64,000 nucleotides of DNA, from positions 14,632,110 to 14,696,109 of the forward strand of contig NC_134030.1 of the NCBI RefSeq assembly GCF_964204645.1, written 5' to 3'. The DNA comes from Tubulanus polymorphus. Its lineage: Eukaryota; Animalia; Nemertea. Within the stretch, counting starts at the first letter, position 1, and each line of letters opens with the position of its first letter. The position numbers were made by a program, and so were the translations under genes. Positions 12,468-45,230 of the stretch are shown here, piece after piece. Under the pieces are notes generated by a model. It worked only from the letters and a program-made list of their open reading frames with translations. It was not told the DNA's origin and did no database searches.

Positions 12468-12474
12468 AAATAAG

Positions 12475-13490
12475 ATTATTATATTGATATCTCTTATAAA
12501 AAACAAGAAAAAATATAAGCAGAATCAACTTTGCTTAAGTTAGACCTATCTAGAATTAAAAGAATAAGAAATAGTAATGAACCAGAAGATGTAACACAAG
12601 AAGAAATTATTAAAAATGAAAGAGTATTTAAACAAAGAATTAATAAATTATTTGAAACAATCGATAATAATTTAGAACCAGAAACAACTTCTGATCAGAA
12701 TAAAACTTCCAAAACTAGTAAACTTAAATCAAAAGTTCCAATTGAAAAACTTTTACTGATAATGCAATAAGAGAAATTATTAGTACAAGAAATGAAGCTG
12801 ATAAAATTGCGCATGATAAAAGTATAAGAGATTTAAAAATTAGAACTTTAGAAGATGAATTATTTAAATCAAGAAAAGAATCAGAACAATTAAAATTAGA
12901 TAGAGATAATAAAGTTATTGAAGAAATTGAGTTTAAAAAAAGAAATGCATATTTAGAAAAAGAAATTGATAATTTAGAATATAACATAGAATTTCAGAAA
13001 GAAGAAATTAAATTATTTAAAGAATCATATAATTATTGTATTAATAGATTAAAAGTTGTTCTTAAAGATTTAATAATTAAACCAAATTCTGAAATATCAT
13101 TGAAAGATAGAATAAAATTATTATTTAAGTTTGAAGGAATCACAATTCTTTCAATTCTAACAGCTGTAACTATGGTATTTACAACAATAGGTTTAGCTAT
13201 ATCAAAATCACTGAAATCTTCTCCTACTCCAAATAAACCAGATAAACCCCCAGATAATAATTCAATACAAGATAATGTTAAAGATGGTTTAAAGAAATTA
13301 GCAAAATATTTATGGGAACTATCTAAAAAATCTGCTGCAGCATTGCCAGGAGTTATTGCATCAATTGTTGGTTTTAATTGAAATCTGCAGGGAATATTAT
13401 TAACTTTGCTGCTGAACATATTATTTTATTTTTAATTACAGTTGTAAAGTGCAATTATTTTTGGGTTAGTGAATATGATAAAAAATGAAT
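12475..13490 (+). pseudogene. Remnant of the Polinton coiled-coil/C-terminal membrane protein (homolog of 35033-36640)
   Basis: Shares LKDRIKLLFKFEGITILSILTAV...KKSAAALPGVIAS with copy B; contains stops and frameshifts. Confidence 0.8.
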
Positions 13491-13512
13491 AATTAATCTT
13501 TTTGTTAAATAA

Positions 13513-14760
13513 ATGAGTGGGAGTTATATAAGTCCTTCGAAGAATCATAGAATATCTAATGCTATTAAAGCAGAAAGATCACATCATATAATTACTCATA
13601 ACCCTTCTAATATTAATCCCGATGAAACTTTATATGTTAGAATTCCGAGATTAACACAAAATACTTTTTACGTTCCAAATAGTATTTATTTATCTGCCGA
13701 TATAAAAGTAATCGGTTATAATAATAATTATGTTGTTGATAATGTTGGAAGATATTTGATTAAAAAATTAACTATAAAGATTGGTCCAGAAACAGTTTTC
13801 TCATTAGATGATTATAATTTATTTATGCATTATAAAGATTTATGGTTAACTAAAGAAAATAGAAATAATATGATATTTCAAGGCATCCAATCAGAAAACC
13901 AAAATAAATTAAGATCACAAGCTAATAGCGCAATATAAACTAATGCTGTAGATAAATTGATAAAAAGTATATATGGAAGCAAATATAAAATTCCATTAGA
14001 CTTTGAATTGATAAATAACAATGCACCTTTATAAAAATACGCAATTCAAGAAGACGTTATATTCGAAATAACATTTGCTCCTGTAAATGAAATTGTAATA
14101 TCTAGCGTTAATAAAGATATGAGTTATAAATTATCGAATATATGTTTAGAATATGACACAGTAACTGATGAAAATATTTCAAGTATAATTCAAACTCAAT
14201 ACAATCAAGGATTTTCATTATTATATGATTATATTGATAAATTTAAAACTGTAACTATTAATGCAAATGATGAAATTATTAATGAGAATATTAACTTCCC
14301 AAGAAGATCTATTAAAGATATATTAATATTTTTTACCATTGCAACATATACTAATGGAGCAATAAATGTTGATAATTATTATAATCCTGAAATAACAAAA
14401 GTAGAAATAACTATCGAAGGAATAGCATATAAAATATTTTGTCAAGGAATGAGAATGATTGATCAATGGCCAGAAATTAGAAAACATTTTATGAATGAAA
14501 AAGTGAAATCATCTGAAAATTGTAACGTTATTCAAATTGATTATTATACCGGTAATAAATATGCATTATGGTTAGATTTTAGAACAACAGAGGATAATTC
14601 ATTACATGGTTCTGGAAAAAAACTACAGAACACTAAAGATGGAATACAATTATTCATGACAAAGAATAAAGGAATCAAGAATTTCAAAATGCACATTTAT
14701 ATCATATCTGACGCGCAATTAAATATTGTAAATTCTCAATTGAATAGTGTTATGTATTAA
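13513..14760 (+). pseudogene. Major capsid protein (double jelly-roll, hexon-like), interrupted by premature stops
   Basis: Collinear with the intact 415-aa ORF 36713-37960; in-frame TAA at ~13936 and ~14032. Confidence 0.8.
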
Positions 14761-14793
14761 AATTTTAACTTTAATAAAATATTTATATAATAA

Positions 14794-15678
14794 ATGGAAG
14801 GAGGTAAAGTATATAAACATATTCCATACATCGATACACATGAAAATAATGATGGTTTATATTATGTAATACCTTGTAATATAGCTTTGATATTTGATCC
14901 TATTTTCAAAATTTATAAAACTAAACTAATAGAAATCGATAATAATAAAAGTGGTGTTGTTGATAATTTAAGTAATGTAATTGATAATAATGTAATACCT
15001 TCTACATCTAATAATGTAATACCTTCTACATCTAATAATGCAATACCTTCTACATCTAATAATGCAATACCTTCTACATCTAATAATGCAATACCTTCTA
15101 CATCTAATAACGTAATACCTTCTACATCTAATAATGTAATACCCTCTACATCTAATAATGAAATAATATTAAATGTTAGTGAAAATAGAAATTATTGTGG
15201 ATATTGTAAAAGTGAATTTTCAAACGCTACATCAAATTGGAATAAACATATGAATACAAGGGTACATATAAATAATGTTATAGAACGTGTTGGTTTAAAA
15301 GAATTTATAGAACACCCATTTAGATATGTTACAAAGTTTGTTTCAAATCAAAAAAGTAAATAGTGAAAAGATATATGAAGATTTATTATTAGCAACACCT
15401 AATAAAGATGAATTAGATCTAACCGATGCTAATGAAATATTAGGATCAAACACTGTAAATGAAATATTAGGAGCAAACACTAATAAAGATTCTATGAAAC
15501 ATAAAGTAGAAAATAACGATAAATTTGATTGGATGAATAAGCATAACAATGAAACAACTATTGATGATGCGGTAAAAAGGTGAAAAATAAGTATAAAAAT
15601 AATAGAGAATTTGAAGAAGAAAATTCGGTAGAGAATTTGAATAAATTGTTAGGGGGGTCTGATAGTGAAAGCGATTAA
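14794..15678 (+). pseudogene. Polinton hypothetical protein with NNVIPSTS tandem repeats and a C2H2-like finger, frameshifted near 15360
   Basis: 24-bp unit repeated about 7 times (~14985-15160); CGYC...HMNTRVH motif; homolog at 37993-38962. Confidence 0.65.
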
Positions 15679-16223
15679 GATATTAATTATATTTAACTCA
15701 AAAAAGAATAAGGGTTGAAAATTGTATAAAATAATAGTAAATAAAAAAGGGGGTTTTAAGTATTTAAGGTATTTACGGTATCTAATACATATCTAATACA
15801 ATCTAATACATAAAATATCTTATTTTATAAACTGATATTCATATGGAAATTGAAACCTTAGTAATAATAAATAACCTTTATTATTTTCAAACATATTCAT
15901 ATATTAGTTGAAAAAATAAAAATAAATTGGTTGAAAATTGTATAAATAATATTTATTTTTAAAAAGAGGGTTTTAAGTATTTAAGGTATCCAATATGGTA
16001 TCAGGTATTAGGGTATCTAATAGGGTATCTAATAGGGTATCTAATAGGGTATCTAATACATAGGTAAATTTTAAACATATTTCAATATTTATATTTGTAT
16101 GAGTTAGATTTTTAAACATTAAAAGTGTTAGTAAAGTTTTATTGAAATAATTCATATATATTCATGAATAACATATAAATGAATAACTTCTAAAATCAAT
16201 TTAGTAAAAAATATGTATAATAA

Positions 16224-16877
16224 ATGGAACCAGAACAACCACAAATTATCAATATTACAAATAACACTGGTGTTATAAATATATATTACAAGAAGTGTTC
16301 TAAATGTGAATTAGATAAATTAGCTATAACAGAATTTAATAAGCGTAAGATTAGCAAAGATGGTTTTCATTATTGCTGTAAAACTTGTACTAAACTATAT
16401 ACCAAACAATATCGAGAAGATAATAGAGAAGCTTATAATGATTATATGACAGAATATATGAGAGAAAGATATCAAACAGATCTTAATTTTAGATTGAAAC
16501 AATGCTTAAGATCTAGATTAACACAATTATTCAACAAAGAAACACATTCAGAAACACTATCTAATTTATTGGGTTGTTCAGATGAATTTTTCATATCATG
16601 GATAATATATCAATTCGATGATAAAATGAATATAGATAATTATGGTGAATACTTTCATATTGATCATGTGTTACCAATATCTAAATTTAACATGAATGGT
16701 GAATACAATAAAAAACTTATTTGGAGTTGGAAAAATTTAAGACCTTTAGAAAAGAAGGAAAACATAATTAAATCTAATAAACTAGATATACAGTTATATT
16801 TAGATCAACTGGATAAAGCAAAGACATTTGTTGAATTATGGAACTCAACACATAATGAAAAATACGTTGAAGCTTGA
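16224..16877 (+). CDS. HNH endonuclease-like protein with N-terminal Cys zinc finger (resembles giant-virus-type HNH proteins)
   Basis: CSKC...CCKTC and LLGCS...NYGEYFHIDHVLP...NLRPL...EN..KSNK motifs. Confidence 0.7.
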   Translation: MEPEQPQIINITNNTGVINIYYKKCSKCELDKLAITEFNKRKISKDGFHYCCKTCTKLYTKQYREDNREAYNDYMTEYMRERYQTDLNFRLKQCLRSRLTQLFNKETHSETLSNLLGCSDEFFISWIIYQFDDKMNIDNYGEYFHIDHVLPISKFNMNGEYNKKLIWSWKNLRPLEKKENIIKSNKLDIQLYLDQLDKAKTFVELWNSTHNEKYVEA

Positions 16878-18021
16878 GCGCTTAGAAAACCGGTTACTCT
16901 CGATCTATGTCAAACCGCCTATATGTAATTGTATTAGGTTGTTTACAAAAGCATCTGTCGCACGTTATATTCAGTTGAATAGGGTGTATCTCATTTGAAT
17001 ATTGATCGAATGTGCTATTTCAGTTGAAAAGGATTAATCAATTACATCACAAAGGATGGAACATATGTTGCTCAGACAGTGTTTAGCTAGTGAATAACTG
17101 GCGTTATAAGGGCGCAGCACATAAGCATAGGAACGCATAGGATATTCTCTCTATAAACACAATTTTAGGAGTTTACAGTTATAAATGTAAGTACTGTTTT
17201 TGTTGTTATTAAGGCGTTGGGAAACGTTAAACATGTAAAACTTATCCTGGTAAGATGCGCCACGAATGGCTATGTTTAAGTGCTGTAATTAATATTTTAC
17301 AACTACAACTTCAAGTTAGTTTTATTCTACGTTAGATATTTATCTTTTAGATAACAAAATGAAGGCCATTGAATCAAGAAAGTGAAGATAGATGGATGTG
17401 GAATCAGAAATAATGGATATTTCAACTCATGAGAGTGTAGCAGTTTAGCCATACTGTATAGGCTTCCAATGCATTACGTTTGTCGGAATTTCAATTGCGT
17501 CATTAAGCTGTTGTTAATGTCACACAGTGACAGATGTTGTATTGTATTTTATTGATTCCTGCATTCCACGCATACCTTACCGCTCATAAAATGCGCGGCT
17601 TGGAATGTGGAAATCGATAATGATTGTAGAATAAAATATATGTGTTTATGAAATAGTATTTCCACCAGTCGTTTCTTTGAATTTATTTTCAGTTTTAGGA
17701 TTTATTATCGAGAATCCGAAATGACTTATCTGGACAGTTATAATTACTGCTCCTATAGATAAACAATAGTAGTGAGATAATCTAAATCCTAATTTAAATA
17801 AAAAGTATTTAAAAAACAATAACTTCAACTAGCTAGTGAATTCTATTATATTTTTAATATTTTCTTTTCAAAAGAGAATACTTTATATTTTGAATAGATT
17901 CAAATAGAAATTCTTTAAATTCAAATAGCTAGTACCAGTAGTCAATACTAGAATTCTTTAACTTTAACTATCTAGTATCAGAATACTTATAATATTTTTT
18001 TATTAAATTTCTCTAATATAA

Positions 18022-18624
18022 ATGTCAAAGAAATCTAATAAGAATAGTATTGATATTGAAAAAACATTAGATGATTTGGGCATAAATGATAATAAAGATA
18101 CAGTTGTTTCTAATTCTATTCAAGTTAATAACAATATTGATTATGAATACTATTTATATTGTAAGCATCATCTTCAATTATTAATTGCTGGCGGGATATC
18201 TAAGGATTTCTTAGGAAAATTTTTAACTTATCAAGAACTAGATGCTATGAAACCAGATAAAGTAATAAAATATTTTAAGATTTATGAAGAAGCTAGATTA
18301 GCCCGAATAAATGATTCTATTTCAGATGGTATTGTCAAATGTTACTCTAAGTTATGTAACCGGTTAATACCATTTGATGATGAAAATAAATTATATAGTG
18401 ATTTGAAAAATGACTACTTAGTTATGACTGAATTACAAAAATGGGTCGGATATGCTTCATTCCAATTAGGATCGGTTATGACATTAATTTCTACTGGTGT
18501 CATAACTTTTTCGAATATCAAGCCTATGGAATATAAATCAGGTAAGAACGAAACAGATGTACTACAACCAAACGTCGAAACAGAAAATGAATCAGAACAA
18601 AAATTAACTAAAATAAATGAGTGA
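18022..18624 (+). CDS. Polinton hypothetical protein with a hydrophobic segment
   Basis: Intact 200-aa ORF conserved with 41272-41856. Confidence 0.7.
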   Translation: MSKKSNKNSIDIEKTLDDLGINDNKDTVVSNSIQVNNNIDYEYYLYCKHHLQLLIAGGISKDFLGKFLTYQELDAMKPDKVIKYFKIYEEARLARINDSISDGIVKCYSKLCNRLIPFDDENKLYSDLKNDYLVMTELQKWVGYASFQLGSVMTLISTGVITFSNIKPMEYKSGKNETDVLQPNVETENESEQKLTKINE

Positions 18625-18976
18625 TGGCGTAAAGAAAAAGGCTAGATCAGAGAAACAAATTAAATGGGCAAGAGAATTAGGTAAAAGATCTTCAGAATTA
18701 AAAAAAGCTAAGAAAAAGAAATTAACTGATATAAATGAATCACCTGATATTGATTCAAATAATAATCCATCTGATTCTTCTAATGCTGGAAGTAATTATA
18801 AATTATATATTACAATTGGATTAGTAACAGTTATTATATTATCCGGTGTAATATATAAATCAAAATTCAAATCTGATGATAAAGATGATTCCAATGATGA
18901 TAAACCTATTATACCAGAAAATAAGTCAAATCATAAAGCCATTGAAACTAAATCTAAATTATTATTAATGGATTAA
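18617..18976 (+). CDS. Small basic single-pass membrane protein
   Basis: Basic N-terminus and TM segment YITIGLVTVIILSGVIY; conserved with 40884-41279. Confidence 0.7.
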   Translation: MSDGVKKKARSEKQIKWARELGKRSSELKKAKKKKLTDINESPDIDSNNNPSDSSNAGSNYKLYITIGLVTVIILSGVIYKSKFKSDDKDDSNDDKPIIPENKSNHKAIETKSKLLLMD

Positions 18977-18982
18977 AATAAG

Positions 18983-20095
18983 ATGAAAAAAGAACAATAT
19001 TTAAGAGATTTATATTATAACCCAGAAAGTGAAGTATCATATTCTAACGTTTCAGAATTATGGAATAAAATTAAATCTGATAATGAAAATGGTGCCGTAC
19101 GGCACCCACATGGTGGTATAAAATATAGTGAATTAAAATCATGGTTACAAAATCAACCAACATATCAAATCCACAAGAAAATGGATAAAACTTATTTAAC
19201 AAGAAAAGTTATGGTTTCATATATTGATCAACAATGGCAAGCAGATTTAATTGACATGAAGAATTTAGAGGAATACAACAAAGGATATTTCTGGATATTA
19301 AATGTTATAGACATATTCAGTAGATACGCATGGTCAATTCCAATCAAAAATAAAACTGGTATAGAAGTGACAAATGCTTTTAAATTTATATTTAAAGAAG
19401 CTATTCCAGATAAGATACAATTTGATGAAGGTAAGGAATTTTATAACAAACATTTTAAAAAACTATTATCTGATAACGATGTAGATAATTTTTCAACACA
19501 TTCAGATAAAAAAACATCTATTTTAGAAAGATTTAATAAAACATTGAAAACTAGAATGTGGAAATATTTTACTGCTAATGAAACATATAAATATATCGAT
19601 GTGTTAGACGATTTAGTGAAAGGTTATAATAATTCTAAACATTCAAGTATTGGTATGAAACCTATACAAGCTAGAAAAGAAGATAATTCAGAAATAGTTT
19701 GGAATAATTTATATGGCGCATTTGTTACACATGATTTCGGTGAACCTAAATTTAAAATAGGACAACACGTTAGAATATCTAAATATAGAAAAACATTTTA
19801 TAAAGGTTATACCCCTAATTTTACAGAAGAAATATTCAAGATTAAAATGATAATATTAACTAAACCTTTTGTTTATAAACTAGAAGATCTAAAAGATGAA
19901 GAAATATTAGGTTATTTTTATGAACAAGAATTATCACTTGTACCAAACCCAGATGAAATAGAATACAAAATAGAAAAAGTATTGAAAACAAAAACTCTTA
20001 AAGGAAAAAAGTATTCTTTGGTGAAATATAAAGGATACGATGATAAATTTAATGAATGGATTTTATCTAGTAAAATTAAAAGAATAAATGAATAA
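18983..20095 (+). CDS. Polinton retroviral-like (RVE) integrase with C-terminal chromodomain
   Basis: WQADLID, VIDIFSRYAW, IQFDEGKEF and ERFNKTLK (DDE core); YKIEKVLK...VKYKGYDDKFNEW (chromo-like). Confidence 0.92.
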   Translation: MKKEQYLRDLYYNPESEVSYSNVSELWNKIKSDNENGAVRHPHGGIKYSELKSWLQNQPTYQIHKKMDKTYLTRKVMVSYIDQQWQADLIDMKNLEEYNKGYFWILNVIDIFSRYAWSIPIKNKTGIEVTNAFKFIFKEAIPDKIQFDEGKEFYNKHFKKLLSDNDVDNFSTHSDKKTSILERFNKTLKTRMWKYFTANETYKYIDVLDDLVKGYNNSKHSSIGMKPIQARKEDNSEIVWNNLYGAFVTHDFGEPKFKIGQHVRISKYRKTFYKGYTPNFTEEIFKIKMIILTKPFVYKLEDLKDEEILGYFYEQELSLVPNPDEIEYKIEKVLKTKTLKGKKYSLVKYKGYDDKFNEWILSSKIKRINE

Positions 20096-20699
20096 AGATT
20101 TATTTATATTTGAACCGCATAATATGTTAGTTACTGGAGTAACCAATTGTGGTAAAACACATTTCATATTAGATTTGTTAGAAACTATTTATAAGAATCA
20201 TTTTGATAATATGATATTATTCTGTCCTACTTATGAAATGAATGAAACATATAATAGAGATATAGTTAAGATGAAAAAGTTTATTATATTCGACCCTAAA
20301 ACAGTAAAAGAAAATTTAGATAATTGTATAAAAATAGCAATTGATACTTATAAAGGATCAAATAAATTATTCATTATAGATGATTGTGCAAATTTACATG
20401 ATTCAAAAGTGAGAGAAAGTGAGTTATGTTATTTAGCTTTCTCTGGGAGACATTTTGGGATAACAACATGGGTTTTAAATCAAAAATATAATTCAATTGT
20501 TAAAGAGTTTAGGGAGAATATAAGATTTCTAGTTTTATTTTATAACAAAGATAAAAAATCTATGCAACAATCATTGGAAGAAAATCAAATTATACCCACT
20601 GAATTACATGATGAATATATGAATAAATTAAAGAATAATAAAGGTTCAAAATTATTACTGAGACTACAATTTCCATATGAATATAAATTTATAAAATAA
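20088..20699 (+). CDS. A32/FtsK-like DNA packaging ATPase
   Basis: Walker A GVTNCGKT, Walker B FIIDD, and GRH...Q motif. Confidence 0.9.
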   Translation: MNKDLFIFEPHNMLVTGVTNCGKTHFILDLLETIYKNHFDNMILFCPTYEMNETYNRDIVKMKKFIIFDPKTVKENLDNCIKIAIDTYKGSNKLFIIDDCANLHDSKVRESELCYLAFSGRHFGITTWVLNQKYNSIVKEFRENIRFLVLFYNKDKKSMQQSLEENQIIPTELHDEYMNKLKNNKGSKLLLRLQFPYEYKFIK

Positions 20700-20789
20700 C
20701 TATCTATATATCTATTCTATAAGAGCTTACACTTTTATATTGAATAATCTGTCAATTTAAATGTTATTCATTTACATGAATATTTTAAG

Positions 20790-21199
20790 AGTAATAGGGG
20801 TAATTGGCTTTCAGGTTAAAGGTTGAATGGTCGAGTTCATTAAAAACAAATATTAAAAGTAATTTAAAACTATAATATATTTTCATAACCGTGTGTATTT
20901 CAGTTGAATAATAGAATTATTATTATTATTTGAATATATTTGATTATATGAATTTGTGTATTGTAAATAAATCAATTGGTCGCGAAGCGGAGCGGTAGCG
21001 AAGTGGAGCGACCAATTGATTTAATACAATATGCTTTTAAAATTTAAATTATTGATATCTTAGAATAAATATTTAGTTATAATATAAAATACACACGGTT
21101 ATGAAAATATATTATAGTTTTAAATTACTTTGAATGTTTTGTTTTTTAATGAGCTCGACCCTTCGACCTTTGGCCTGAAAGCCCATTACCCCTATTACT
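20790..21199. repeat. Palindromic terminus of Polinton copy A (~410-bp imperfect palindrome)
   Basis: AGTAATAGGGGTAAT...ATTACCCCTATTACT with central stem AAATCAATTGGTCGC/GCGACCAATTGATTT. Confidence 0.93.
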
Positions 21200-24100: not shown

Positions 24101-24484
24101 TGTAATAGAATGAAGCATTTCTTTTCAACGGACATTAGGCCGCTTGAGGACGACATACCTGAGAATCCACCTATTGACAGGGAGGACAGGGATCAACCTG
24201 AGGAGGGGCCTGTGCTCGCACCGGATGATCCGGGCGATCAAAATCAGCCTGCGAATCCGGTTGAGCCAATCTATTACGTAGAACGAGTGATTCGTCACAA
24301 AAAAGAGAAAGGCATTCTGAAATATCTTATAAAATGGGTTGGCTATGACGATAGTGAGAACACGTTTGAGCCAGCCGAAAACCTGCCTCCTGAAATCATT
24401 CGAGCCTATTGGGATGACCATGCCGCTAAAGTGAAGCGAAAAACTCGTAAAAATAAGAAGAGACGTCGAGAAAGAGACGACTAG
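21200..24484 (+). pseudogene. pol: Gypsy/Ty3 (Metaviridae) pol: PR-RT linker, RT, RNase H, integrase, GPY/F and chromodomain, disrupted
   Basis: SPWAAPVVLV..WRFCVDYRGLN, YLDD, YTDAS...ERNYSTTDRELLA, H...H...C..C zinc finger, SDRGTNF, WTGPY and YLIKWVGYDDSENTFEP. Several frameshifts, including a 13-bp duplication at ~21698-21724. Confidence 0.93.
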
Positions 24485-24498
24485 TACGTGGTTTCTAG

Positions 24499-24529
24499 AT
24501 TACTGATTCTTGCTATCCCTATTTTTCAG
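24499..24529 (+). promoter_or_regulatory. Putative splice acceptor for a subgenomic env mRNA
   Basis: CTGAT branch-point-like motif, pyrimidine tract and TTTTTCAG immediately before G-ATG at 24531. Confidence 0.55.
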
Positions 24530-24530
24530 G

Positions 24531-26608
24531 ATGCAAATTGTCGTAATCTTGGTGGCCATATGGTCGTCGGCCTATTGTCTGATGCCCTCGACGGTCTTGA
24601 GGCCAAACTATGGTGTCGCCTTACATCGGATTGGAGGAGTCCATAATGGCGACAGTGCCTGGTTTCACACGTTCGCTATACCGTGGCTAGTTGTTAATGA
24701 CCCCCCGAGTAAAGGCTTGCGGCTACGCTGTTCTCTTGTCCAGCCAGAACTTCGTTCTCAGTGCTCCGGCTATTTGGAAATGTTTCGTGAGGCGCATCGC
24801 CTACAGTTAGACACGTTGACCCATATCAGGGGACAATTGGCTGATATGAGACGAATGATACCTGATGCTGCAGATACCGACTCACGAAAGAAACGACACG
24901 CCAGTGGGCGCAGGGTCAAACGTGCACCACTTTCATTTATCGGATCGATTTCGTCTTCCTTGGTCGGTACTGCTACCGAAGATGAAGTTCAGCAAGTAGA
25001 AAATCACGTCGAAAAAGTAGAAAAAATAGTCAAGTTGAATTCGGATCAAATCACCCACATACAGGGGACACTCTCTTCATTTATTAATGCGACTGACAAA
25101 CGAATCAGCAGCCTGACCTCTGCATACGTGGCCAATTCAAAAGAACTTAAATCAATTCGAGCGACACTGCTAAGGCAAAGTGTCGATGCGAGTATGCTAG
25201 CATTAGCGTCTGACATGACAATAAGAAATATCATCCTAGTGGAACGACTGACGGCAGTTTCCAGTGAGTGGTTGCAGGGGGTTGAAAAGTTATTGGAGGG
25301 ATATTTGCCTAGAGCCCTGGTTAATCCAAAAATGGTTTCGAAGGTTCTTGACGATGTGTCCGAAAAATTAAATAGGATGCATTCTGGGTTTTCAATAGCT
25401 AATAGGGATGTAGGCTATTATTACGTAGTTAAGGATGTGTGTTTTTCGATCAAAATCCCCTTGCAATCTAGTCAGACATATTTTGATTTATACTCGGTTG
25501 TCTTAATGCCAGTGCCAATAAACGCAACGTCCTATAACACTTCAATGATTGTTGGTACAGCCCCTTATTTTGGCGCTACTAGGGACGGTAGTTACTACAC
25601 TAAAATGGGTCACGATATATTTGCTACTTGTCATGGTACCGACGTGATGACTTGCCGGCAGCGCGTGTCCATGCGCGAAATAACCGTGGAATCTTGCCTT
25701 AGTAGTCTATTCTTCGACAAACCCTCACAGGTGCTAGCGTTATGCCACATACGGTATGAGGTCCAGGGCCTGGCCGAACTGGCAGTCGACGTAGGGGATG
25801 GCTACTTTGTTGTTTCAGGCACTGACGATTTTTGGACTCTCGCCTGCCCTGGCAAGTCACTAAAAGCAATAAAAGCATGTCGTTTTTATTTGGTAAAAAT
25901 TGGGTGTGCATGTGCATTGCGTGGATCAAAATTTTTTGTGCCCGGTAGAATTAACAAATGTATTAAGCAAGACACGGTGACCATTGCGCACGCTGTTAAT
26001 TTACCGGTCCTACATAGTTTCTTTTCAAAGAATGTAGCAACAATGTTCCAGGGAACGCCATACGCACCGCTGCCTAGTCTTGATTTCAAGGCTAATAACT
26101 GGTCAAAAGTGGCTGCGGTGGACACTAAATTTAGCATAGATTTCAAAAAGTTAGCAAGAACCGTTCAAACTGACGCTAAACTGTACCGATCGCAAGCAGA
26201 CGCTTTATTTGATCATTCTGAACCTGTTATTTCGTCTGGAACCGGTACAGGGTGGCTCACTTGGCTTGCTATTGGTCTCTCGGCGGGCAGCATGTTGCTT
26301 TCGATATTTGTTTTACTTAAGTCGCAATGATCCTTATCAATTCTGGGAGCAGGACTTCTTCCGACCGCTGAGGCCATGGTGATTGTTCACCCCGCTATTC
26401 ATGATTTACAGCGAGGGGGCTGGAATAATACAGTCATTCGGGAAGTTGTCATGGCTAAAAATGTGCGCATCGATGTCGTCCTGTTCTTAGTTATTGTAGT
26501 AGGTAAAGTTATAATTGTGTTCAGAACTTTATTGCGTGCTATGCGCTACAGGTGCCGACACTGTTTGCCTGCACCTTGTTCACTGGGAAAATATCCGGTT
26601 AGGCTAAC
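24531..26608 (+). pseudogene. env: Envelope glycoprotein (baculovirus-F/errantivirus env-like class I fusion protein); premature stop at 26328-26330 and interrupted by Polinton B
   Basis: Signal peptide MQIVVILVAIWSSAYC; furin site RRVKR followed by fusion-peptide-like APLSFIGSISSSLVGTAT; heptad region; Cys-rich region; TM WLTWLAIGLSAGSMLLSIFVLL. Confidence 0.8.
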
Positions 26609-27210
26609 AGTAATAGGGGTAATGGGCTTTCATACCAAAGGTCGAACGGTCGAGCCCATTAAAAAACAAAATATTAAAAGTAATTAAAAAACTATAATAT
26701 ATTTTCATAACCGCGTGCATTTTATATCAAAACTAAATATTTATTCTAAGATATCAATAATATAAAAAGCATATTGTATTAAATCAATTGGTCGCTCCAC
26801 TTCGCTACCGCTCCGCTCCGCGACCAATTGATTTAATTACAATACACAAATTCAAATAATCAAATATATTCAAATGATAATAATTATTCTATTATTCAAC
26901 TGAAATGCACGCGGTTATGAAAATATATTATAGTTTTTTAATTACTTTTAATATATGTTATTAATGAACTCGATCATTAAACCTTTGATATGAAAGCCCA
27001 TTACCCCTATTACTCTTAAAATATTCATATATATATGAATAACATTTAAATCATTGAACTTCTAAAATCAATTTTAATAAAAAATTTAGTATTAAAATGG
27101 AAGCAAATAAATACTACTGCCCAACATGTAATATCGATATAGATAAATCCCAAAAAGCAAGACACAATAAAACTAGAACACATTTAGAGAATAAATTGAA
27201 ACTAGAATAT
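26609..27210 (+). repeat. Left TIR of Polinton B (406-bp palindrome 26609-27014, then promoter and first 38 codons of pPolB)
   Basis: Reverse complement of 44278-44881; by eye the only difference is a TA-repeat length. Confidence 0.93.
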
Positions 27211-30200
27211 AAAGATGATATATTAGAAACTAAATTAGATGAATTAAAGAATGAAAAAGAAGCATACAAATGTGATACATGTAATCAATCATTCAGTGAT
27301 AAAAGATATTATAAAGTACATTTAAAATCTATAAGTCATATTAGAAATAAGAATAATGATATTTTAGGTGAAGATTATTTTGATAATGATAACGATAAGA
27401 AACAGAAGACAATTAAAAGAATAAAAAATAAATTAAACAATAAAAGACCATATATGGAAGATGTAAGAAATTATATTAATTCATTAGATAATAAAAAAGA
27501 TATAGAGATAACCGAAGCATTTATAAGTGATATTGGTCCAGCAGCTATCGAGTTTAAATTTCATAAAAGTAAAACAATAGAAGAAAATAAAAAACATTTA
27601 GAAAATATGAAAGAAATAATAAAAATAATTACAGATGTTGAATATCCTAAAATTAGTATATCAGTTAAAGTAAAGTTTATAAAATCTGAAGATAAACCAA
27701 TATATAATATAAATTCTCATTCACAACATATTATATCTAAACAACATATAGATGATAAATTAGATAAATGTTATAATGAAGTAAAAACTAAAATAGAAGA
27801 GAAATATTTTGAAGGATCTGGTTTAATATTTGATGAGATAATATTTATAACTTTACATGTTTATAACACAAAATATAATAAGTTAACTAAATCAAAACCA
27901 ATTGATGAAAATAATTTATCATATTATAAAGAACCCGATATTGAAGCATCAAGTTATATTAAACTACCATTTAAAACTAATGCTGTAATAAATATACAAA
28001 ATGAAGATGATAAATGTTTTCTATGGGTTATAATAAGTTGTTTACATCCATCAGAAGATATTACACATAGTTTTAGATTAACTCATTATAAACAATTTGA
28101 AAATAATTATAAGATAGATAAGTATCCTGTTAGAATTAAAAACATCCCAAAAATAGAAAGAGATAATAATTTAAAGATAAATGTATTTGATTTAATCAAA
28201 TTACCAAATACAAAAGGTAACAACATAAAACATTATACATTAGAACCTTTATACCTATCAAAAGATTATGATTCAAATGATGTTATAGATATACTATATT
28301 ATGAAAATCATTACATGTGGATTAAACAAATCGATTTATTTTTCAAATCAGAAAATGATCACCATAAAATATATCTATGTAGAAAATGTTTACATAAATT
28401 TAGTAATGAAAGTACATTATTAAATCATAAACAACTATGTGATAATCATGATTATTGTAAATTAAATTTACCAAATGAAAAAGATAAAATATTAGAATTC
28501 AAAAAATATGATTACAAAAATAAAGTACCATTTGTAATATATGGAGATTTTGAATCATTAAATAAAGAATTAACAGATAAAGATAGAAAAGATATATATT
28601 ATAAAAGAAAGTAATTAAATTCTAATGAAAGTGATTATTCAGAAGAACCACCAAAAACAAATACTATTAAAAAGATTCATCAATCAGCTGCAGCTTTCGG
28701 GTTATATATTAAATCTAATTATCCAGAACTAATTAAAAGTGAATATTATAATTATAGAAATGAAAATGTTATCAATCATTTTTGTGACTTATTAATTGAA
28801 TATGAAATAAGATTTAATGAAAAGTTAAATAAAAATATAGAAATTATAATGACAGAAGAAGATAAAGAAGAATTTGAGTTTGCAGATAAATGTTATTATT
28901 GTGAAAAGATATTTAATTATAAAGATAAAAAAGTAAGAGACCATGATCATTTGAATGGAAAGTTTAGAGGCGCTGCACATGAGAATTGTAACTTACAAGC
29001 TAAGAAAATTAACTTTGTACCAGTTATATTTCACAATTTATCGGGGTATGACGCGCATTTATTTATCAAACAGTTATGCCATAAAATAGAAGAAATCAAT
29101 AATGAAATAGAAATATTAAATTCAAATAGATCAAAAGATAAAATACCAACTTATAAATTTAGAATGTTAGCTAAAACATCTGAGAATTATATATCATTCC
29201 AATTTGGGTGTCTAAGATTTATAGATTCATATAGATTTTTAAATAGTTCATTAGATAACTTATCAAAATCATTAGTTGATGATGAATTAAAAATATTAAA
29301 AGAATATTACCCAAATAATGATGATTTCCAATTAATGAGATATAAAGGAGCGATTCCATATTCTTTCTATAAAAATCATAATGATTTTAAAATAACTGAA
29401 TTATTGAAAGAACAATTTTATGATGAATTAAAAAATGAATATGTTAAAGATGAAGTCTATAATAGAACATTGAATATTTGGAATCATTTCAAAATAGAAA
29501 ATCATGGTCAATTAGTAGATTTATATTTAAAATCAGATGTATTATTATTAACCGATATATTCGAAAGGTTTAGAGATGTAAACCTAAAATATTTCAATAT
29601 TGATCCATGTCATTGTTATTCTAGCCCAGGATTAACATGGGATTGTGGATTAAAATTTACAGATATAAAAATGGATTTGTTAACAAATATAGATCAATTA
29701 CTATTATTTGAAAAATCTATAAGAGGAGGTGTTTCAGGTGTATTGGGTGATAGATATTTCAATGTAAATGATAATCCTGGATATAAATTATTATACATAG
29801 ATGCAAATAATCTTTATGGTTGGGCAATGATGGAACCACAACCTTATGGGATGTTTGAAATAACTGAAGTTTTACAAATTGATAAATTTGATTGGAAGAA
29901 AAGAATCCTAGATATTGCAGATGATTCAGATACTGGTTACTTCTTCGTTGTAGATTTAGAATACCCTGAAAATATTAAATTCAAATCTAGAAATCTAGCA
30001 TATTGTCCCGAACATAAAACTGTTAAACATGAAGAATTATCAAATTATCAAAAAAGAATTAAACCCGATAATCATATTCATACTGAAAAGTTAATGGTAA
30101 CTCAAGAAGATAAATATAATTACGTTGTGCATTATAGAATGTTGAAGTTTTATTTGAGACAAGGAATGATATTAAAAAAAGTACATAGATATATTTCATT

Positions 30201-30982
30201 CAGTCAATCTAAATGGTTAGAAAAATATATAGATTTTAATACTACACAGAGAACTAAATCTAAAACTGATTTTGAAAAAGATTTTTTTAAGTTAATGAAT
30301 AATGCGTTCTATGGAAAAACTTGTGAAAACATAAGAAATAGAAATGATATTGAGTTAGTTAGTAATGGTAAAAGGATAAGGCATTTACAATCATATCCTA
30401 AGTTTATAGGTAACAGAATATTTGATGAAAATTTAGCTGCAGTTAAAATGAGGAGAACTTCTATGAAGTTCAATAAACCTATATTTATTGGTTCGACTGT
30501 TTTGGAAATTTCAAAATTATTGATGTATAATTTTTATTATAATGTTTTACAACCCCATTTTGGGGAAAAACACATAGAAATCTTATATTTTGATACAGAT
30601 TCTTACATATTAAAGATAAAAACTGATAACATAACAGATGATTTAAAAACATTAAAACATCATTTTGATTTCAGTAACTATCCTAAAGATCATGAATTGT
30701 TTGAAAGTTGTTGAAAAGAATATTCATTTCAAAGATTACATCAATTGTATATTTAATGAAGAAGTTAGAAAACATAAGATGAAATGTTTAAGATCTGAAG
30801 ATCATGAAATGTTTATTGAAGAAATAGAGAAGATAAGTTTGAATCCATTTGATGATAAAAGATATATTTTAGATGATGGAATCCACACAGTCGCCTATGG
30901 TTGCAATTTAGATGAATATATAAAATTCAAAAGAGAAGAAACAAAAGAAAATGAGATTATGAAAAGGATTCTAGCGTGTTAA
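27097..30982 (+). pseudogene. polB: Protein-primed family B DNA polymerase with N-terminal C2H2 fingers, TP/vOTU-like region and EndoVII-like insertion; in-frame stop at 28612-28614 and a deletion/frameshift at ~30710
   Basis: ExoI VIYGDFES, ExoII FHNLSGYD, ExoIII YLKSDV; Pol A YIDANNLYGWAM, Pol B KLMNNAFYGK, Pol C YFDTDS; INIQNEDDKCFLW...HY (vOTU-like); CYYC...VRDHDHLNGKFRGAAHENCN (EndoVII-like). Confidence 0.93.
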
Positions 30983-31010
30983 TCAATTTCAATAAAAATT
31001 TGTATAATAA

Positions 31011-31352
31011 ATGGAGAGTAAACAAGTACACAGTGAATTCTTAGATAGAATTAAAGATACTTCAAGCGTCAAATCTGTAGATTATAAATTCAAAAAGTTA
31101 ACAGAATTAACAATCCTTAAGAAATATCTAATTACAAATATTGTTACAGTTACTAATAAATATGGAGATAAATTAGTAATTCATTTAGAATATGAAGGAT
31201 TAAAAGGAAATAAATATAAATTCAGAACATATTTACCAGATAGATTTCATAGATTATCAAGTGAAGATTTAGAAGAATTATGTTCTGGAGATTTCTATTT
31301 CGTATACAAAGGTAAGAATGAAAAAGGGCACCATGAAATAGATTTCGAATGA
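31011..31352 (+). CDS. Small beta-rich protein, possible OB-fold ssDNA-binding protein
   Basis: Intact 113-aa ORF directly downstream of polB with pattern KKLTEL...KYG...LP.RF; function is inferred only. Confidence 0.45.
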   Translation: MESKQVHSEFLDRIKDTSSVKSVDYKFKKLTELTILKKYLITNIVTVTNKYGDKLVIHLEYEGLKGNKYKFRTYLPDRFHRLSSEDLEELCSGDFYFVYKGKNEKGHHEIDFE

Positions 31353-31369
31353 GAAAATATGTAAAATAA

Positions 31370-32129
31370 ATGGTGGAATTAAAAGAATACAGAATATTTG
31401 TTGATTCTAGAAAACTTACAAATTATAAATCTCATAATTTATTAGTACAATTAGATAGAGAATTTAAGAATTGTGTAGATTTAAAATTAGTAAATATAAG
31501 TTTATGTAATTCTTTTTACAATGTATCGGATAAGTCTATTGAACATAGAGTCTTTTTAATTCATGATAGAAATAAAAGTAAATGGTTTCATCTTTATCTT
31601 AAACCAGGATTATATAATTTAGAAACATTAGCTCAAGAAAATTAATAGAAGAGCTCGGTTAAAAATGGGTGCATCTGCTGGATTTGGATTAAGACTGATT
31701 AAAAGTGATAGTTCTGATAAAATAAGAATAAAATTAGGTAATGAAGATCAACATCAATTTCTAGTTAAAAAACCCTTAGCTAAAATTTTAGGAATAACCC
31801 CAGATGTAAGGATACGCAATGCTGATGCTACACCAAATATAATGCCTTTTACACGTTTTTGTATTTATTGCAATTTAATCGATCCTACAAAAACATTCGA
31901 AGCAACTAAAGATATAACTTGTAATTCTGGTTTACTAAACATTTTACCATTGAAGAATGTTAAAGAATTTGGAACGCAAATAAATTATAATTTAACAGAA
32001 TGTGATTTCAAACTATGCATTCCTCGTTTTAATAATTTTAGATTAGAAATTAGAAATCATAATGGATACTTAATTGATTTAAATAATTTCCCTGTAATTT
32101 ATGAATTAGTTATAAGATGTAAAGAGTAA
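31370..32129 (+). pseudogene. Minor capsid protein (penton, single jelly-roll), frameshifted near 31640
   Basis: IFVDSR...NSFYNV...PGLYN...IYCNLI...LLNILP...LEIRNHNGYLIDLNN matches the Polinton penton pattern. Confidence 0.75.
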
Positions 32130-32145
32130 TTTTTTCATTATATAA

Positions 32146-32487
32146 ATGAATATAACTGTTGGACCGAGTATATGTTTTGGATTTGATTTTAAACATGGTA
32201 AAGAAATGAGAATTAAACTAAATGATGTAATTACTGATATAAAAAGTAAATCATTTAACAATGCATCAATGATTGATAAAGAAAATTATAATATAGAAAA
32301 AGTAATTGATTTAATTAAATCACCTTTAGAATATTATGAATTAAATGAAGATGGAATTATTGATGATATCAAAAACATATTATCCAAAATATATGATAAT
32401 CATAAAACTAGTAATGAAATAAATGTTGAAATAATCATAAATAAGTTAACGAAATATTTTGAAGATAGTAATTTTTTTGATAAATAA
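32146..32487 (+). CDS. Polinton hypothetical protein
   Basis: Intact ORF with TAAATG start within the gene array. Confidence 0.55.
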   Translation: MNITVGPSICFGFDFKHGKEMRIKLNDVITDIKSKSFNNASMIDKENYNIEKVIDLIKSPLEYYELNEDGIIDDIKNILSKIYDNHKTSNEINVEIIINKLTKYFEDSNFFDK

Positions 32488-32709: not shown

Positions 32710-32733
32710 ATGCATAATTGTTTTGCTAAATAA

Positions 32734-33156: not shown

Positions 33157-33175
33157 TAATTTTTATTCTAAATAA

Positions 33176-33610: not shown

Positions 33611-33627
33611 TTTTTTTAATTATATAA

Positions 33628-35016: not shown

Positions 35017-35032
35017 TTTTTTTATTATGTAA

Positions 35033-36712: not shown

Positions 36713-37960
36713 ATGAGTGGGAGTTATATAAGTCCTTCGAAGAATCATAGAATATCTAATGCTATTAAAGCAGAAAGATCACATCATATAATTACTCATA
36801 ACCCTTCAAATATTAATCCCGATGAAACTTTATACGTTAGAATTCCTAGATTAACACAAAATACTTTTTATGTTCCAAATAGTATTTATTTATCAGCCGA
36901 TATAAAAGTAATCGGTAATAATAATAATTATGTTGTTGATAATGTTGGAAGATATTTGATTAAAAAGTTAACAATAAAGATTGGTCCAGGAACAGTTTTC
37001 TCATTAGATGATTATAATTTATTTTCACATTATAAAGATTTATGGTTAACTAAAGAAAATAGAAATAATATGATATTTCAAGGAATTCAATCAGAAAACC
37101 AAAATAAATTAAGATCAGAAGCTAATAGCGCAATATTAACAAATGATGTAGATAAATTGATAAAAAGTATATATGGAAGCAAATATAAAATTCCATTAGA
37201 CTTTGAATTGATAAATAATAATGCACCTTTATATAAATACGCAATTCAAGAAGATATTATATTTGAGATAACATTTGCTCCTGTAAATGAAATTGTATTA
37301 TCTAGCGTTAATAAAGATATGAGTTATAAATTATCGAATATATGTTTAGAATATGATACAGTAACTGATGAAAATATTTCAAGTATAATTCAAACTCAAT
37401 ACAATCAAGGGTTTTCATTATTATATGATTATATTGATAAATTTAAAACTGTAACTATTAATGCAAATGATGAAATAATTAATGAGAATATTAACTTCCC
37501 AAGAAGATCTATTAAAGGTATATTAATATTTTTTACCATTGGAACGTATACTAATGGCGCAATAAATGTTGATAATTATTATAATCCTGAAATAACAAAA
37601 GTAGAAATAACTATCGAAGGTATAGCGAATAAAATATTTTGTCAAGGAATGAGAATGATAGATCAATGGGTAGAAATTAAAAAACATTTTATGAATGAAA
37701 AAGTAAAATCATCTGAAAATTGTAACATTAATCAAATTGATTATTATGCCGGTAATAAATATGCATTATGGTTAGATTTTAGAACAACTGAAGATAATTC
37801 ATTTCATGGTTCTGGAAAAAAACTACAGAACACTAAAGATGGAATACAATTATTCATGACAAAGAAAAAGGGAATCAAAAATTTTAAAATGCACATTTAT
37901 ATTATATCTGACGCACAATTAAATATTGTAAATTCACAATTAGATAGTGTTATGTATTAA
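36713..37960 (+). CDS. Major capsid protein (double jelly-roll, hexon-like)
   Basis: Intact 415-aa beta-rich ORF, highly conserved between the copies; size and position fit a Polinton MCP. Confidence 0.8.
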   Translation: MSGSYISPSKNHRISNAIKAERSHHIITHNPSNINPDETLYVRIPRLTQNTFYVPNSIYLSADIKVIGNNNNYVVDNVGRYLIKKLTIKIGPGTVFSLDDYNLFSHYKDLWLTKENRNNMIFQGIQSENQNKLRSEANSAILTNDVDKLIKSIYGSKYKIPLDFELINNNAPLYKYAIQEDIIFEITFAPVNEIVLSSVNKDMSYKLSNICLEYDTVTDENISSIIQTQYNQGFSLLYDYIDKFKTVTINANDEIINENINFPRRSIKGILIFFTIGTYTNGAINVDNYYNPEITKVEITIEGIANKIFCQGMRMIDQWVEIKKHFMNEKVKSSENCNINQIDYYAGNKYALWLDFRTTEDNSFHGSGKKLQNTKDGIQLFMTKKKGIKNFKMHIYIISDAQLNIVNSQLDSVMY

Positions 37961-39172: not shown

Positions 39173-39187
39173 TAGGTATACAAATAG

Positions 39188-39799
39188 TTATTTTATAAAT
39201 TTATATTCATATGGAAATTGTAATCTCATAAGTAATTTGGAACCTTTATTATTCTTTAATTTATTCATATATTCATCATGTAATTCAGTAGGTATAATTT
39301 GATTTTCTTCCAATGATTGTTGCATAGATTTTCTATCTTTGTTATAAAATAAAACTAGAAATCTTATATTCTCCCTAAAATCTTTCACAATTGAATTATA
39401 TTTCTGATTTAAAACCCATGTTGTTATCCCAAAATGTCTACCAGAGAAAGCTAAATAACATAACTCACTTTCTCTAATTTTAGAATCATGTAAATTTGCG
39501 CAATCGTCGATAATAAATAATGTATTAGATCCTTTATAAATATCTAATGCAATTTTTATACAATTATCTAAATTATCTTTTACTGTTTTAGGATCTAATA
39601 TAATAAACTTTTTTATCTTAACTATATCTCTATTATATGTTTTATTCATTTCATAAGTAGGACAGAATAATATTATATTACCAAAATGATTCTTATAAAT
39701 AGTTTCTAACAAATCTAATATGAAATGTGTTTTACCACAATTGGTTACACCAGTAACTAACATATTATGAGGTTCAAATATAAATAAATCTTTATTCAT
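39188..39799 (-). CDS. A32/FtsK-like DNA packaging ATPase
   Basis: GVTNCGKT, FIIDD and GRH motifs; intact. Confidence 0.92.
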   Translation of the reverse strand: MNKDLFIFEPHNMLVTGVTNCGKTHFILDLLETIYKNHFGNIILFCPTYEMNKTYNRDIVKIKKFIILDPKTVKDNLDNCIKIALDIYKGSNTLFIIDDCANLHDSKIRESELCYLAFSGRHFGITTWVLNQKYNSIVKDFRENIRFLVLFYNKDRKSMQQSLEENQIIPTELHDEYMNKLKNNKGSKLLMRLQFPYEYKFIK

Positions 39800-40877
39800 T
39801 TATTCTTTTAATTTTACTAGATAAAATCCATTCATTAAATTTATCATCATATCCTTTATATTTCACCAGAGAATACTTTTTTCCTTTAAGAGTTTTTGTT
39901 TTCAATACCTTTTCTATTTTGTATTCTATTTCATCTGGATTTGGTACTAATGATAATTCTTGTTCATAAAAATAACCTAATATTTCTTCATCTTTTAAAT
40001 CAAACAATTTATAAACAAATGGTTTAGTTAATATTATCTTTTTAATTTTAAATATTTCTTCAGTAAAATTTGGGGTATAACCTTTATAAAATGTTTTTCG
40101 ATATTTAGAAATTCTAACATGTTGTCCTATTTTAAATTTAGGTTCTCCAAAATCATGTGTAACAAATGCTCCATATAAATTATTCCAAACTATTTCTGAA
40201 TTTTCTTCTTTTCTAGCTTGTATAGGTTTCATATTTATAGAACTATGTTTAGAATTATTATAACCTTTAACTAAATCATCTAATACATTGATATATTTAT
40301 ATGTTTCATTAGCGGTGAAATATTTCCACATTCTAGTTTTCAATGTTTTATTAAATCTTTCTATAACAGATGCTTTTTTATCTGAATGTGTTGAAAAATA
40401 TTCTACATCGTTATCAGTTAATAGTTTTTTAAAATGTTTGTTATAAAATTCTTTACCTTCATCAAATTGTATTTTATCTGGAATAGCTTCTTTAAATATT
40501 AATTTGAAAGAATTTGTAACTTCTATACCGGTTTTATTTTTAATCGGGATACTCCATGCGTATCTACTGAATATATCTATAACATTTAGTATCCAAAAAT
40601 ATCCTTTGTTATATTCTTCTAAGTTCTTCATGTCAATTAAATCTGCTTGCCATTGTTGATCGATATATGAAACCATTACTTTTCTTGTTAAATATTTTTT
40701 ATCCATCTTTTTATGAATTTGATATGTTGGTTGATTTTGTAACCATGATTTTAATTCACTATATTTTATATTGCTATTATCAGATTTAATTTTATCCCAT
40801 AATTCCGAAACACTTGAATATGAAACTTCGCTTTCTGGGTTGTAATATAACGCTCTTAAATATTGTTCTTTTTTCAT
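39792..40877 (-). CDS. Polinton RVE integrase with C-terminal chromodomain
   Basis: DDE core motifs and chromo-like C-terminus; intact. Confidence 0.93.
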   Translation of the reverse strand: MKKEQYLRALYYNPESEVSYSSVSELWDKIKSDNSNIKYSELKSWLQNQPTYQIHKKMDKKYLTRKVMVSYIDQQWQADLIDMKNLEEYNKGYFWILNVIDIFSRYAWSIPIKNKTGIEVTNSFKLIFKEAIPDKIQFDEGKEFYNKHFKKLLTDNDVEYFSTHSDKKASVIERFNKTLKTRMWKYFTANETYKYINVLDDLVKGYNNSKHSSINMKPIQARKEENSEIVWNNLYGAFVTHDFGEPKFKIGQHVRISKYRKTFYKGYTPNFTEEIFKIKKIILTKPFVYKLFDLKDEEILGYFYEQELSLVPNPDEIEYKIEKVLKTKTLKGKKYSLVKYKGYDDKFNEWILSSKIKRINE

Positions 40878-44391: not shown

Positions 44392-44881
44392 TTTAATACT
44401 AAATTTTTTATTAAAATTGATTTTAGAAGTTCAATGATTTAAATGTTATTCATATATATATATGAATATTTTAAGAGTAATAGGGGTAATGGGCTTTCAT
44501 ATCAAAGGTTTAATGATCGAGTTCATTAATAACATATATTAAAAGTAATTAAAAAACTATAATATATTTTCATAACCGCGTGCATTTCAGTTGAATAATA
44601 GAATAATTATTATCATTTGAATATATTTGATTATTTGAATTTGTGTATTGTAATTAAATCAATTGGTCGCGGAGCGGAGCGGTAGCGAAGTGGAGCGACC
44701 AATTGATTTAATACAATATGCTTTTTATATTATTGATATCTTAGAATAAATATTTAGTTTTGATATAAAATGCACGCGGTTATGAAAATATATTATAGTT
44801 TTTTAATTACTTTTAATATTTTGTTTTTTAATGGGCTCGACCGTTCGACCTTTGGTATGAAAGCCCATTACCCCTATTACT
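44278..44881 (-). repeat. Right TIR of Polinton B (palindrome 44476-44881)
   Basis: Reverse complement of 26609-27210. Confidence 0.93.
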
Positions 44882-45230
44882 GCTAACCATAAGGCTTAAG
44901 AATGGTATTCAGACATTGGACTTGCCTCTACTAACATTGTCTGGTTGCGAAACGAGATGTCGTTTTGAGCCTCCAGCTCTCACTACAGTCGCGTTACGAG
45001 TCATTTGTGGAGTCGCCCGCTTGAACTTAACCTGGCAGGCTAAGCAACTGACTTGTTCGCAGGGAACGATGTACAATCTGCCGACTGCTTGCTCGGTGCC
45101 CCTACGGGTTAGTCTCTTCACAATGAGACAGCTCGTATCGGTTCCGAGTAAGGTTGTGCTTGTCGCGGTGTATCGTTCTTTTAGTACTGAATTACGAGAA
45201 GCGACTCAGCTGACAGTTTCGTCAGTGTAG
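44882..45230 (+). pseudogene. env: C-terminal continuation of the Gypsy env ORF after the Polinton B insertion
   Basis: Removing the element and one TSD copy restores the frame: GKYPVRLT|IRLKNGIQTLDLPLL...TVSSV*. Confidence 0.85.

Follow-up and report, generated by a model that had tools for sequence, protein, structure and literature searches.

The window, the whole stretch of 64,000 nucleotides that was analysed, contains an 18,273-bp (18.3-kb) Polinton of a high-copy family at positions 26609-44881 (element B, or copy B) and a truncated second copy (copy A). The features used below are as follows.

12468..21199, no strand assigned: truncated Polinton copy A, from the capsid gene to the right end, with a single end kept
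20790..21199, minus strand: terminal fold-back of truncated copy A, 410 bp, 91% identical to that of B
26603..26608, no strand: left TSD of element B, GCTAAC, with the same six bases at 44882-44887
26609..27210, plus strand: left TIR of element B, 602 bp, comprising the hairpin, an upstream region and the first polymerase codons
26609..27014, plus strand: left terminal fold-back of element B, 406 bp
27097..30979, plus strand: pPolB gene, with terminal-protein, vOTU, EndoVII-like and polymerase domains
27454..27870, plus strand: predicted terminal-protein (D1) domain of pPolB, LF/PAD-like fold, Ser241 being the predicted linking residue
28849..29034, plus strand: endonuclease VII-like domain inside pPolB, with CxxC, DHxH and CN kept
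36713..37960, plus strand: ORF of element B, with a weak Capsid_N match on its paralog in copy A
39188..39799, minus strand: A32-like packaging ATPase (PF04665, E 4e-11)
39792..40877, minus strand: retroviral-type integrase with chromodomain (PF00665, E 8e-9)
44476..44881, minus strand: right terminal fold-back of element B, identical to the left one
44882..44887, no strand: right TSD of element B, GCTAAC

Element B and its truncated relative

Element B is flanked by a perfect 6-bp TSD, and its TIRs begin AGTAAT, in keeping with the AG start and 6-bp TSD of Polintons; the left TIR is 99.7% identical to 44278-44881. A double jelly-roll (DJR) major capsid protein, likewise expected of a Polinton, is encoded in the element. 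The pPolB gene was recognized by PF03175 (E 3e-15) and has intact relatives at 80-82% identity; in copy B it is interrupted by a stop codon in frame (28612-28614) and shifts frame near 30703. No adenovirus-like maturation protease was detected in element B by Pfam or by tblastn using the putative protease ORF of a related Polinton (L035), searches that a divergent or broken gene could escape.

The block running from a zinc-finger gene to the integrase and ATPase genes is inverted in copy A relative to B (16142-20790 versus 39016-44475); at its boundary, 16142-16232 duplicates sequence from immediately inside the hairpin. Sequencing reads often carry the A-type junction (526 loose-end reads at 27051), which indicates that TIR length differs (about 443 versus 602 bp). 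Both copies carry an array of repeats of about 10 bp between their two gene blocks (15770-16060 and 39016-39170). Between the end of copy A and the left end of copy B (21200-26608) lie fragments of a Gypsy-type retroelement (RT, integrase and chromodomain), and an ORF at 24510-26330 resembles baculovirus F/env, with look-alikes that are mostly from arthropods; the repeats around the Polintons would fit an invertebrate host. Elsewhere, we observed a MULE transposase fragment (905-2680), 31-bp tandem arrays (5100-7600) and a dispersed 154-bp satellite (5552-6260, 11998-12480 and 53258-61140) that adjoins the truncated start of copy A.

The termini are long imperfect palindromes

A first-pass annotation of this DNA had described the three termini as imperfect palindromes, and its coordinates proved exact: each palindrome measures 406-410 bp and runs from base 1 of the element, directly adjoining the TSD. 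Since 26609-27014 is the reverse complement of 44476-44881 with no difference, the window holds only two independent sequences, A and B. Folding the termini as DNA, a check which that annotation had proposed, gave -117.1 kcal/mol for B (z -23.7) and -120.3 kcal/mol for A (z -21.6), and in neither case were any of 100 shuffled sequences as stable. The B terminus is built as follows.

26609..26722 (about), plus strand: outer arm; the element end, probably the integrase end and presumed origin; nt 27-68 carry fixed outer/inner mismatches
26723..26771, plus strand: short side of the bubble, AT-rich, unpaired
26772..26844, plus strand: inner stem of about 24 bp (26772-26795/26820-26844) and 24-nt loop (26796-26819)
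26845..26902, plus strand: long side of the bubble, unpaired
26903..27014 (start approximate), minus strand: inner arm, an inverted copy of the terminal 112 bp

In B, the outer and inner arms pair without a mismatch over nt 1-26 and about 69-113; the stretch between these blocks holds about nine mismatches and a 2-nt gap. The bubble had been called large and asymmetric; it is indeed unpaired, but the asymmetry in length is only mild, at about 50 nt (56 in A) against 59 nt. In all three termini, the same arm lies on the outside.

Mirrored change between the two arms

The proposal that the arms evolve in concert had been based on three paired differences between A and B, all of which are present. 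In a four-arm alignment of A and B, six columns were mirrored, corresponding to four events (one dinucleotide, one indel with a substitution, and two transitions). A further six columns carried a fixed outer-versus-inner difference that was the same in A and B, and 12 had changed in a single arm, two of them at the alignment edge. Given 10 and 12 changes in 112 positions, the chance of at least six shared columns is 7e-5; at the level of events, for which the counts are rough, it is about 0.003. Concerted evolution is thus borne out by the mirrored columns and also by the matching allele frequencies in reads described below.

Between A and B, 10/113 and 12/111 positions differed in the stem arms and 3/59 on the long bubble side, as against 2/73 in the inner stem with its loop, the most conserved part of the terminus. 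Because both arms of the stem diverge at least as fast as the bubble, and two-step compensation should be slower, we infer copying between the arms, which would also produce mirrored indels more easily. Where selection or arm-to-arm copying had both been offered as the force that keeps the fold-back, the alignment therefore points to copying as the likelier proximate cause.

Other copies of the terminus in raw reads

Other copies were sampled through public Illumina WGS reads from the same species label (run X6, about 12% of the run); all the evidence comes from integrated copies and short reads, among which neither a free molecule nor a single-stranded form was observed. Reads from X6 spanned the whole hairpin at about 950-1,700x; the terminus was barely touched by reads of run X5 (organism B). 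At 26608/26609, 2,549 reads had unrelated flanks (agreement 0.33-0.35), indicating many insertion sites that end exactly at that base. At seven paired sites, the outer and inner allele frequencies were 33/34, 53/51, 51/49, 13/13 (a 1-nt insertion), 26/24, 34/24 and 57/27%, and five of the seven agreed within 3 points, the seven being those with both partners among the variants listed (40 of 190; 40 of 81). Three of them lie in the first 57 bp, where reads from other subfamilies may go to either arm, and two of these three compare two separate read alignments with different thresholds. Many bubble variants also stood near 25%, so that the frequencies reflect few lineages or subfamilies and about 5-6 independent events, not hundreds.

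The many insertion sites and the matching outer and inner frequencies argue against an assembly artefact. A fold-back created by assembly or sequencing, which the first-pass annotation had named as one way in which its reading could fail, can practically be dismissed in view of the continuous raw-read cover, the perfect 6-bp TSD and the presence of an imperfect, structured palindrome at three ends in two diverged versions. Read depth over the hairpin was only about 1.2-1.3 times that of the adjacent gene, not 2 times, a shortfall due either to library bias or to family members with other ends.

A look for flip/flop isomers had also been suggested. No 50:50 forms were found: orientation is fixed in the three termini, and arm-swapped reads made up about 2% of local depth. 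Isomers in equal proportion, as in AAV or poxviruses, are thus absent from the integrated copies, with which asymmetric resolution is compatible. Strand-switch joints at exactly symmetric positions (sum 41987) were seen in at least 58 reads in the four joints listed (with 17 further joints) out of 8,140 reads, and a second read alignment gave at least 13 further such reads among the joints listed; inversions at low frequency, conversion tracts and chimeras formed in the library are all conceivable sources. The six loose ends with the best support included neither a solo-hairpin end nor an inner-arm end with diverse flanks (<223 reads, against 2,096 at the outer end).

Reads on 20834-21156 and 26644-26980 also revealed short fold-back relatives of about 96 and 122 bp, which share the same terminal 45-57 bp and have a different self-complementary interior; they are either mini-elements or the ends of other subfamilies. 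In several hundred reads, the match broke off past nt 57 or ahead of the last 35 bp, which suggests that another end type is also abundant.

Strand asymmetry of the fold

Eight of nine transition-type arm mismatches are G·T when read on the strand that has its 3' end at the element terminus (two-sided p 0.04), the nine sites being hand-counted from the four-arm alignment together with one read polymorphism, without which p is 0.07. The strongly discordant read site (57% versus 27%) is also G·T on this strand, which in both copies folds 5-6 kcal/mol more stably than the other. On the same (minus) strand, the 24-nt loop reads as a tandem GC-GNA-GC array with three GC-GNA/GNNA-GC motifs and one near-motif, and the other strand has none; GNA triloops lie outside the model of the folding program. 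Two loop variants in reads touch these motifs: one at 20985 (97%) alters the N position, which leaves the motif intact, and one at 21004 (35%) completes a further motif.

In Streptomyces replicons capped by a terminal protein, 3' telomere overhangs form GNA loops with sheared G·A pairs, and fold-back templates the repair of truncated ends, as described in PMC5449611; GCGXAGC is named as a terminal-protein recognition motif in PMC6863802. Together, the wobbles and the GNA motifs are suggestive, and only suggestive, of a fold on the 3' strand. The wobble bias is weak and could come from mutation bias, and the GNA array may be nothing more than a simple repeat of 5 nt.

The polymerase retains predicted protein-priming residues

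The N-terminal piece of pPolB contains the terminal-protein and vOTU domains expected of Polintons, and its predicted fold had a mean pLDDT of 76. For the terminal-protein domain, the best PDB matches were Y-family polymerases, apparently via their little-finger domain; the alignment covered about 112 columns, and the best E value, 2.6e-3, did not reach 1e-3. An LF/PAD-like fold has been reported for Polinton terminal proteins in PMC11161782, from which our residue criteria were taken. Ser241, which is Gly-flanked and lies between helix 2 and strand 4, was invariant in 67/67 aligned polymerases, and the vOTU residues Cys307 and His405 were each kept in 66/67. Conservation of the predicted linking serine and of the vOTU Cys and His suggests that the hairpin likely accompanies protein priming and does not replace it. 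The contrast drawn in the first-pass annotation between hairpin ends and protein priming is therefore wrong for element B.

A profile of 54 motif-selected EndoVII-like domains had T4 endonuclease VII as its best PDB match (E 8e-5, residues 9-64), aligned over D40, H41, H43 and N62, that is, over the Zn-binding and catalytic core. The match stops at residue 64 of 157, short of the C-terminal dimer/DNA-binding part. The CxxC/DHxH/CN residues were invariant in 54/54 aligned domains, which had been picked by that motif, and a PDB search with the domain as a single sequence gave chance-level matches only. With the motif present in 119/121 related polymerases, the domain was rejected as a marker of hairpin-ended elements. 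Among the 40 ORFs scanned with Pfam, no HUH/Rep nickase-helicase was found.

Survey of related loci

We surveyed 113 related loci, comprising the best 80 of 552 metagenome matches and all 33 viral matches. None had a whole-end fold-back, and paired repeats were recognizable at four (L035, L107, L110 and L112, those of L107 perhaps not being true ends); the survey is a weak negative because most contigs lack ends. To judge from these contigs, relatives with the same kind of polymerase may do without a whole-end fold-back. A scan of the viral contig collection with the single capsid-protein sequence gave no relative, and no match to the terminal 24-mer was found there.

Palindromes of other kinds were seen among these loci. 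One contig that carries a related but fragmented pPolB opens with a 90-bp hairpin (L018:1-90, z -12) about 90 bp before an ORF and is possibly a second hairpin-ended element, at a contig end with no TSD. L035 is a complete-looking Polinton with AGTAGT ends and TTAGGG runs in its TIRs (L035:1-720), the left of which holds a subterminal 166-bp palindrome (250-415). In L098, a nested 184-bp palindrome (4657-4840), either a MITE or an end junction, lies about 140 bp upstream of the pPolB gene. Palindromes upstream of pPolB were also seen in L081, L059, L103 and L024; in these five loci, L098 included, no element end could be assigned.

A folded 3' end as a tentative explanation

The geometry, the mirrored change, the fixed orientation and the conserved priming residues were observed directly. 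To account for them we tentatively favor, at somewhat short of an even chance, a terminus that acts as a folded 3' single-stranded telomere whose arms are kept alike by template-switch copying. When a free Polinton strand is single-stranded, freed through strand displacement by pPolB or possibly through single-strand excision, the last 406 nt at its 3' end would double back on the inner arm. Folding would make an origin with the terminal sequence double-stranded locally, so that TIRs 18 kb apart would not have to pair, and the 3' end would be shielded. Protein priming would start on the folded end, by which orientation would be preserved, and refilling of nibbled 3' ends together with template switching would homogenize the two matching blocks, nt 1-26 and 69-113. 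Between them, nt 27-68 stay mismatched, which may stop the inner copy from acting as an origin or integrase end. The paired 3'-OH could also self-prime, which such a telomere would have to suppress.

Several observations speak for this still uncertain account: the exact register with the element end and the TSD, the matching read frequencies at five of seven sites, the G·T strand bias, the GNA loop motifs, the TP/vOTU residues and the shorter fold-backs that share the tip. Against it stand a stem no more conserved than the bubble, one paired site that is off (34% versus 24%), the small number of independent events, a hairpin read depth below twice that of the adjacent gene, data confined to integrated copies and short reads, and relatives that do without the structure.

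Alternative explanations

Quasi-palindrome correction is a process that keeps palindrome arms alike, and the fold-back might be no more than its neutral product: a one-off duplication of the end, kept alike by template-switch correction or gene conversion, functionless, and amplified with a successful family. We consider this unlikely, but still to be taken seriously. The mirrored dinucleotide and indel changes resemble copying, the stem arms diverge as fast as the unpaired parts, the rare strand-switch reads at exactly symmetric places would be arm exchange unless they are library artefacts, and whole-end fold-back was not found in related Polintons (four of 113 loci having recognizable paired TIRs). 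However, a neutral duplication does not account for the exact start at base 1, the second stem held in register across an unrelated bubble, or the inner stem plus loop being the most conserved part (2/73 columns differ). Nor does it explain the strand-specific wobbles and GNA motifs, the length variants that remain folded, or the mismatch block that persists between two homogenized blocks.

It is improbable, in our estimate, that the palindrome serves cruciform excision, in which the duplex palindrome would extrude where host and element meet, and the four-way junction would be cut by the EndoVII-like domain of pPolB, freeing a provirus with folded ends. The cruciform base would sit exactly at the insertion boundary, and the candidate nuclease has T4 endonuclease VII as its best PDB match and an invariant CxxC/DHxH/CN core. 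That motif is nevertheless nearly universal among the related polymerases and so marks no hairpin family, the match leaves the C-terminal part uncovered, and comparable inserts have been published as homing-nuclease or intein remnants (PMC11161782, PMC10748475). Extrusion should be hindered by the central 24-nt loop and 50-nt bubble, a cruciform does not predict a one-strand bias, and the six best-supported loose ends included no solo-hairpin end. In its wider form, which we hold to be equally improbable, the palindrome would be the exit signal of an integrated Polinton: a cruciform or single-strand fold at the host junction would be cut by the EndoVII-like nuclease, and the folded end then copied by terminal-protein priming. 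If true, this would explain how viruses with a retroviral-type integrase exit from their host DNA, and it would connect the mismatched hairpin telomeres found in large DNA viruses with ends that are protein-primed.

Self-priming is a further candidate that we doubt. In such a rolling-hairpin scheme, the folded 3' end would be extended as a DNA primer with asymmetric end resolution, as happens at parvovirus termini of single orientation and has been suggested for Halocafeteria virophages (bioRxiv 10.64898/2026.07.28.741278). The predicted fold has the 3'-OH perfectly paired over 26 nt on the favored strand, as expected of a long terminal hairpin; a nuclease domain is present in pPolB; and some parvovirus termini occur in one form only (PMC8242256). 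The conserved terminal-protein Ser and vOTU dyad argue against it, as do the lack of an HUH/Rep gene or helicase among the ORFs scanned and of 50:50 isomers, and the same preprint ties palindromes mostly to non-pPolB elements.

Finally, it is very unlikely that the inner arm offers the integrase a second end to bind, by which each terminus would be a mini-transposon able to move alone in a composite organization: the unit is bounded by inverted terminal motifs, and reads contain units of roughly 96 and 122 bp bounded by both arms, but no inner-arm end with diverse flanks was among the six best loose ends, and the inner stem and strand bias would go unexplained.

Novelty and comparison with known systems

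The TIR-panhandle model behind Polinton replication and chromosome release is untested. A high-copy family with a long, co-evolving, strand-biased fold-back and retained terminal-protein residues gives studies of priming, end protection and excision a defined DNA to work on. We regard the fold-back as a real feature and a new form of Polinton terminus, with a function that we infer; terminal palindromes as such have already been reported in protist virophages and PLVs. No account of such a terminus, a long fold-back with two stems and co-evolving arms in a pPolB Polinton, emerged from a literature search whose scope left out Kapitonov and Jurka 2006, Pritham 2007, the adintovirus paper, Repbase entries and supplements (those of the preprints may list longer palindromes). 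The terms "hairpin" and "palindrom" are absent from the main text of PMC8097293 and PMC10748475, and 33 matches to "hairpin" in bioRxiv 10.1101/2022.05.25.493380 are protein beta-hairpins, not DNA.

Element B resembles the Polintons/Mavericks (Polintoviricetes), as described in PMC8097293 and PMC10748475, in its pPolB with TP and vOTU domains, rve integrase, A32 ATPase, DJR capsid, 6-bp TSD and AG-starting TIR. It differs in that the TIR itself is a 406-bp fold-back from base 1, in starting with AGTAAT instead of (AGT)2, and in that no maturation protease was detected. Some casposons, which are also self-synthesizing transposons, hold internal palindromes in their TIRs (PMC4046053); unlike element B, they are prokaryotic and use a Cas1 integrase.

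Among viral hairpin ends, those of poxviruses are likewise AT-rich and incompletely paired, with mismatches that matter for function (PMC8956199). They are, however, covalently closed and come in two complementary forms, whereas in element B the two arms are part of linear, integrated DNA, with one form dominant. Parvoviruses share a long imperfect terminal hairpin with a bubble, and some of their ends have a single orientation (PMC8242256), but they have an ssDNA genome and an HUH nickase, and no such nickase was found in element B.

Streptomyces/Rhodococcus-type telomeres combine a palindromic 3' strand, GNA loops, the GCGXAGC motif, a 5' terminal protein and fold-back repair (PMC5449611, PMC6863802), to which element B would be comparable through the motifs on its 3'-end strand and its predicted TP. 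They differ in having several short palindromes in a 3' overhang left by replication from an internal origin, in using Tap/Tpg and in not being integrated, and they serve here as a working analogy only.

The virophages of Halocafeteria seosinensis and PLV subtype 4, which integrate by rve, carry terminal palindromes beside the TSD, for which a hairpin-priming model has been put forward (bioRxiv 10.64898/2026.07.28.741278). As in element B, the palindrome lies inside the TIR next to the TSD. In the subtype drawn in that preprint it measures 52 nt and the palindromes occur preferentially in non-pPolB elements; we saw no covariation or isomer analysis there. Element B, in contrast, has 406 bp, two stems, a pPolB with TP residues, mirrored evolution and a fixed orientation, and thereby carries the record of terminal palindromes beyond protist virophages, mostly without pPolB, to a Polinton that has one.
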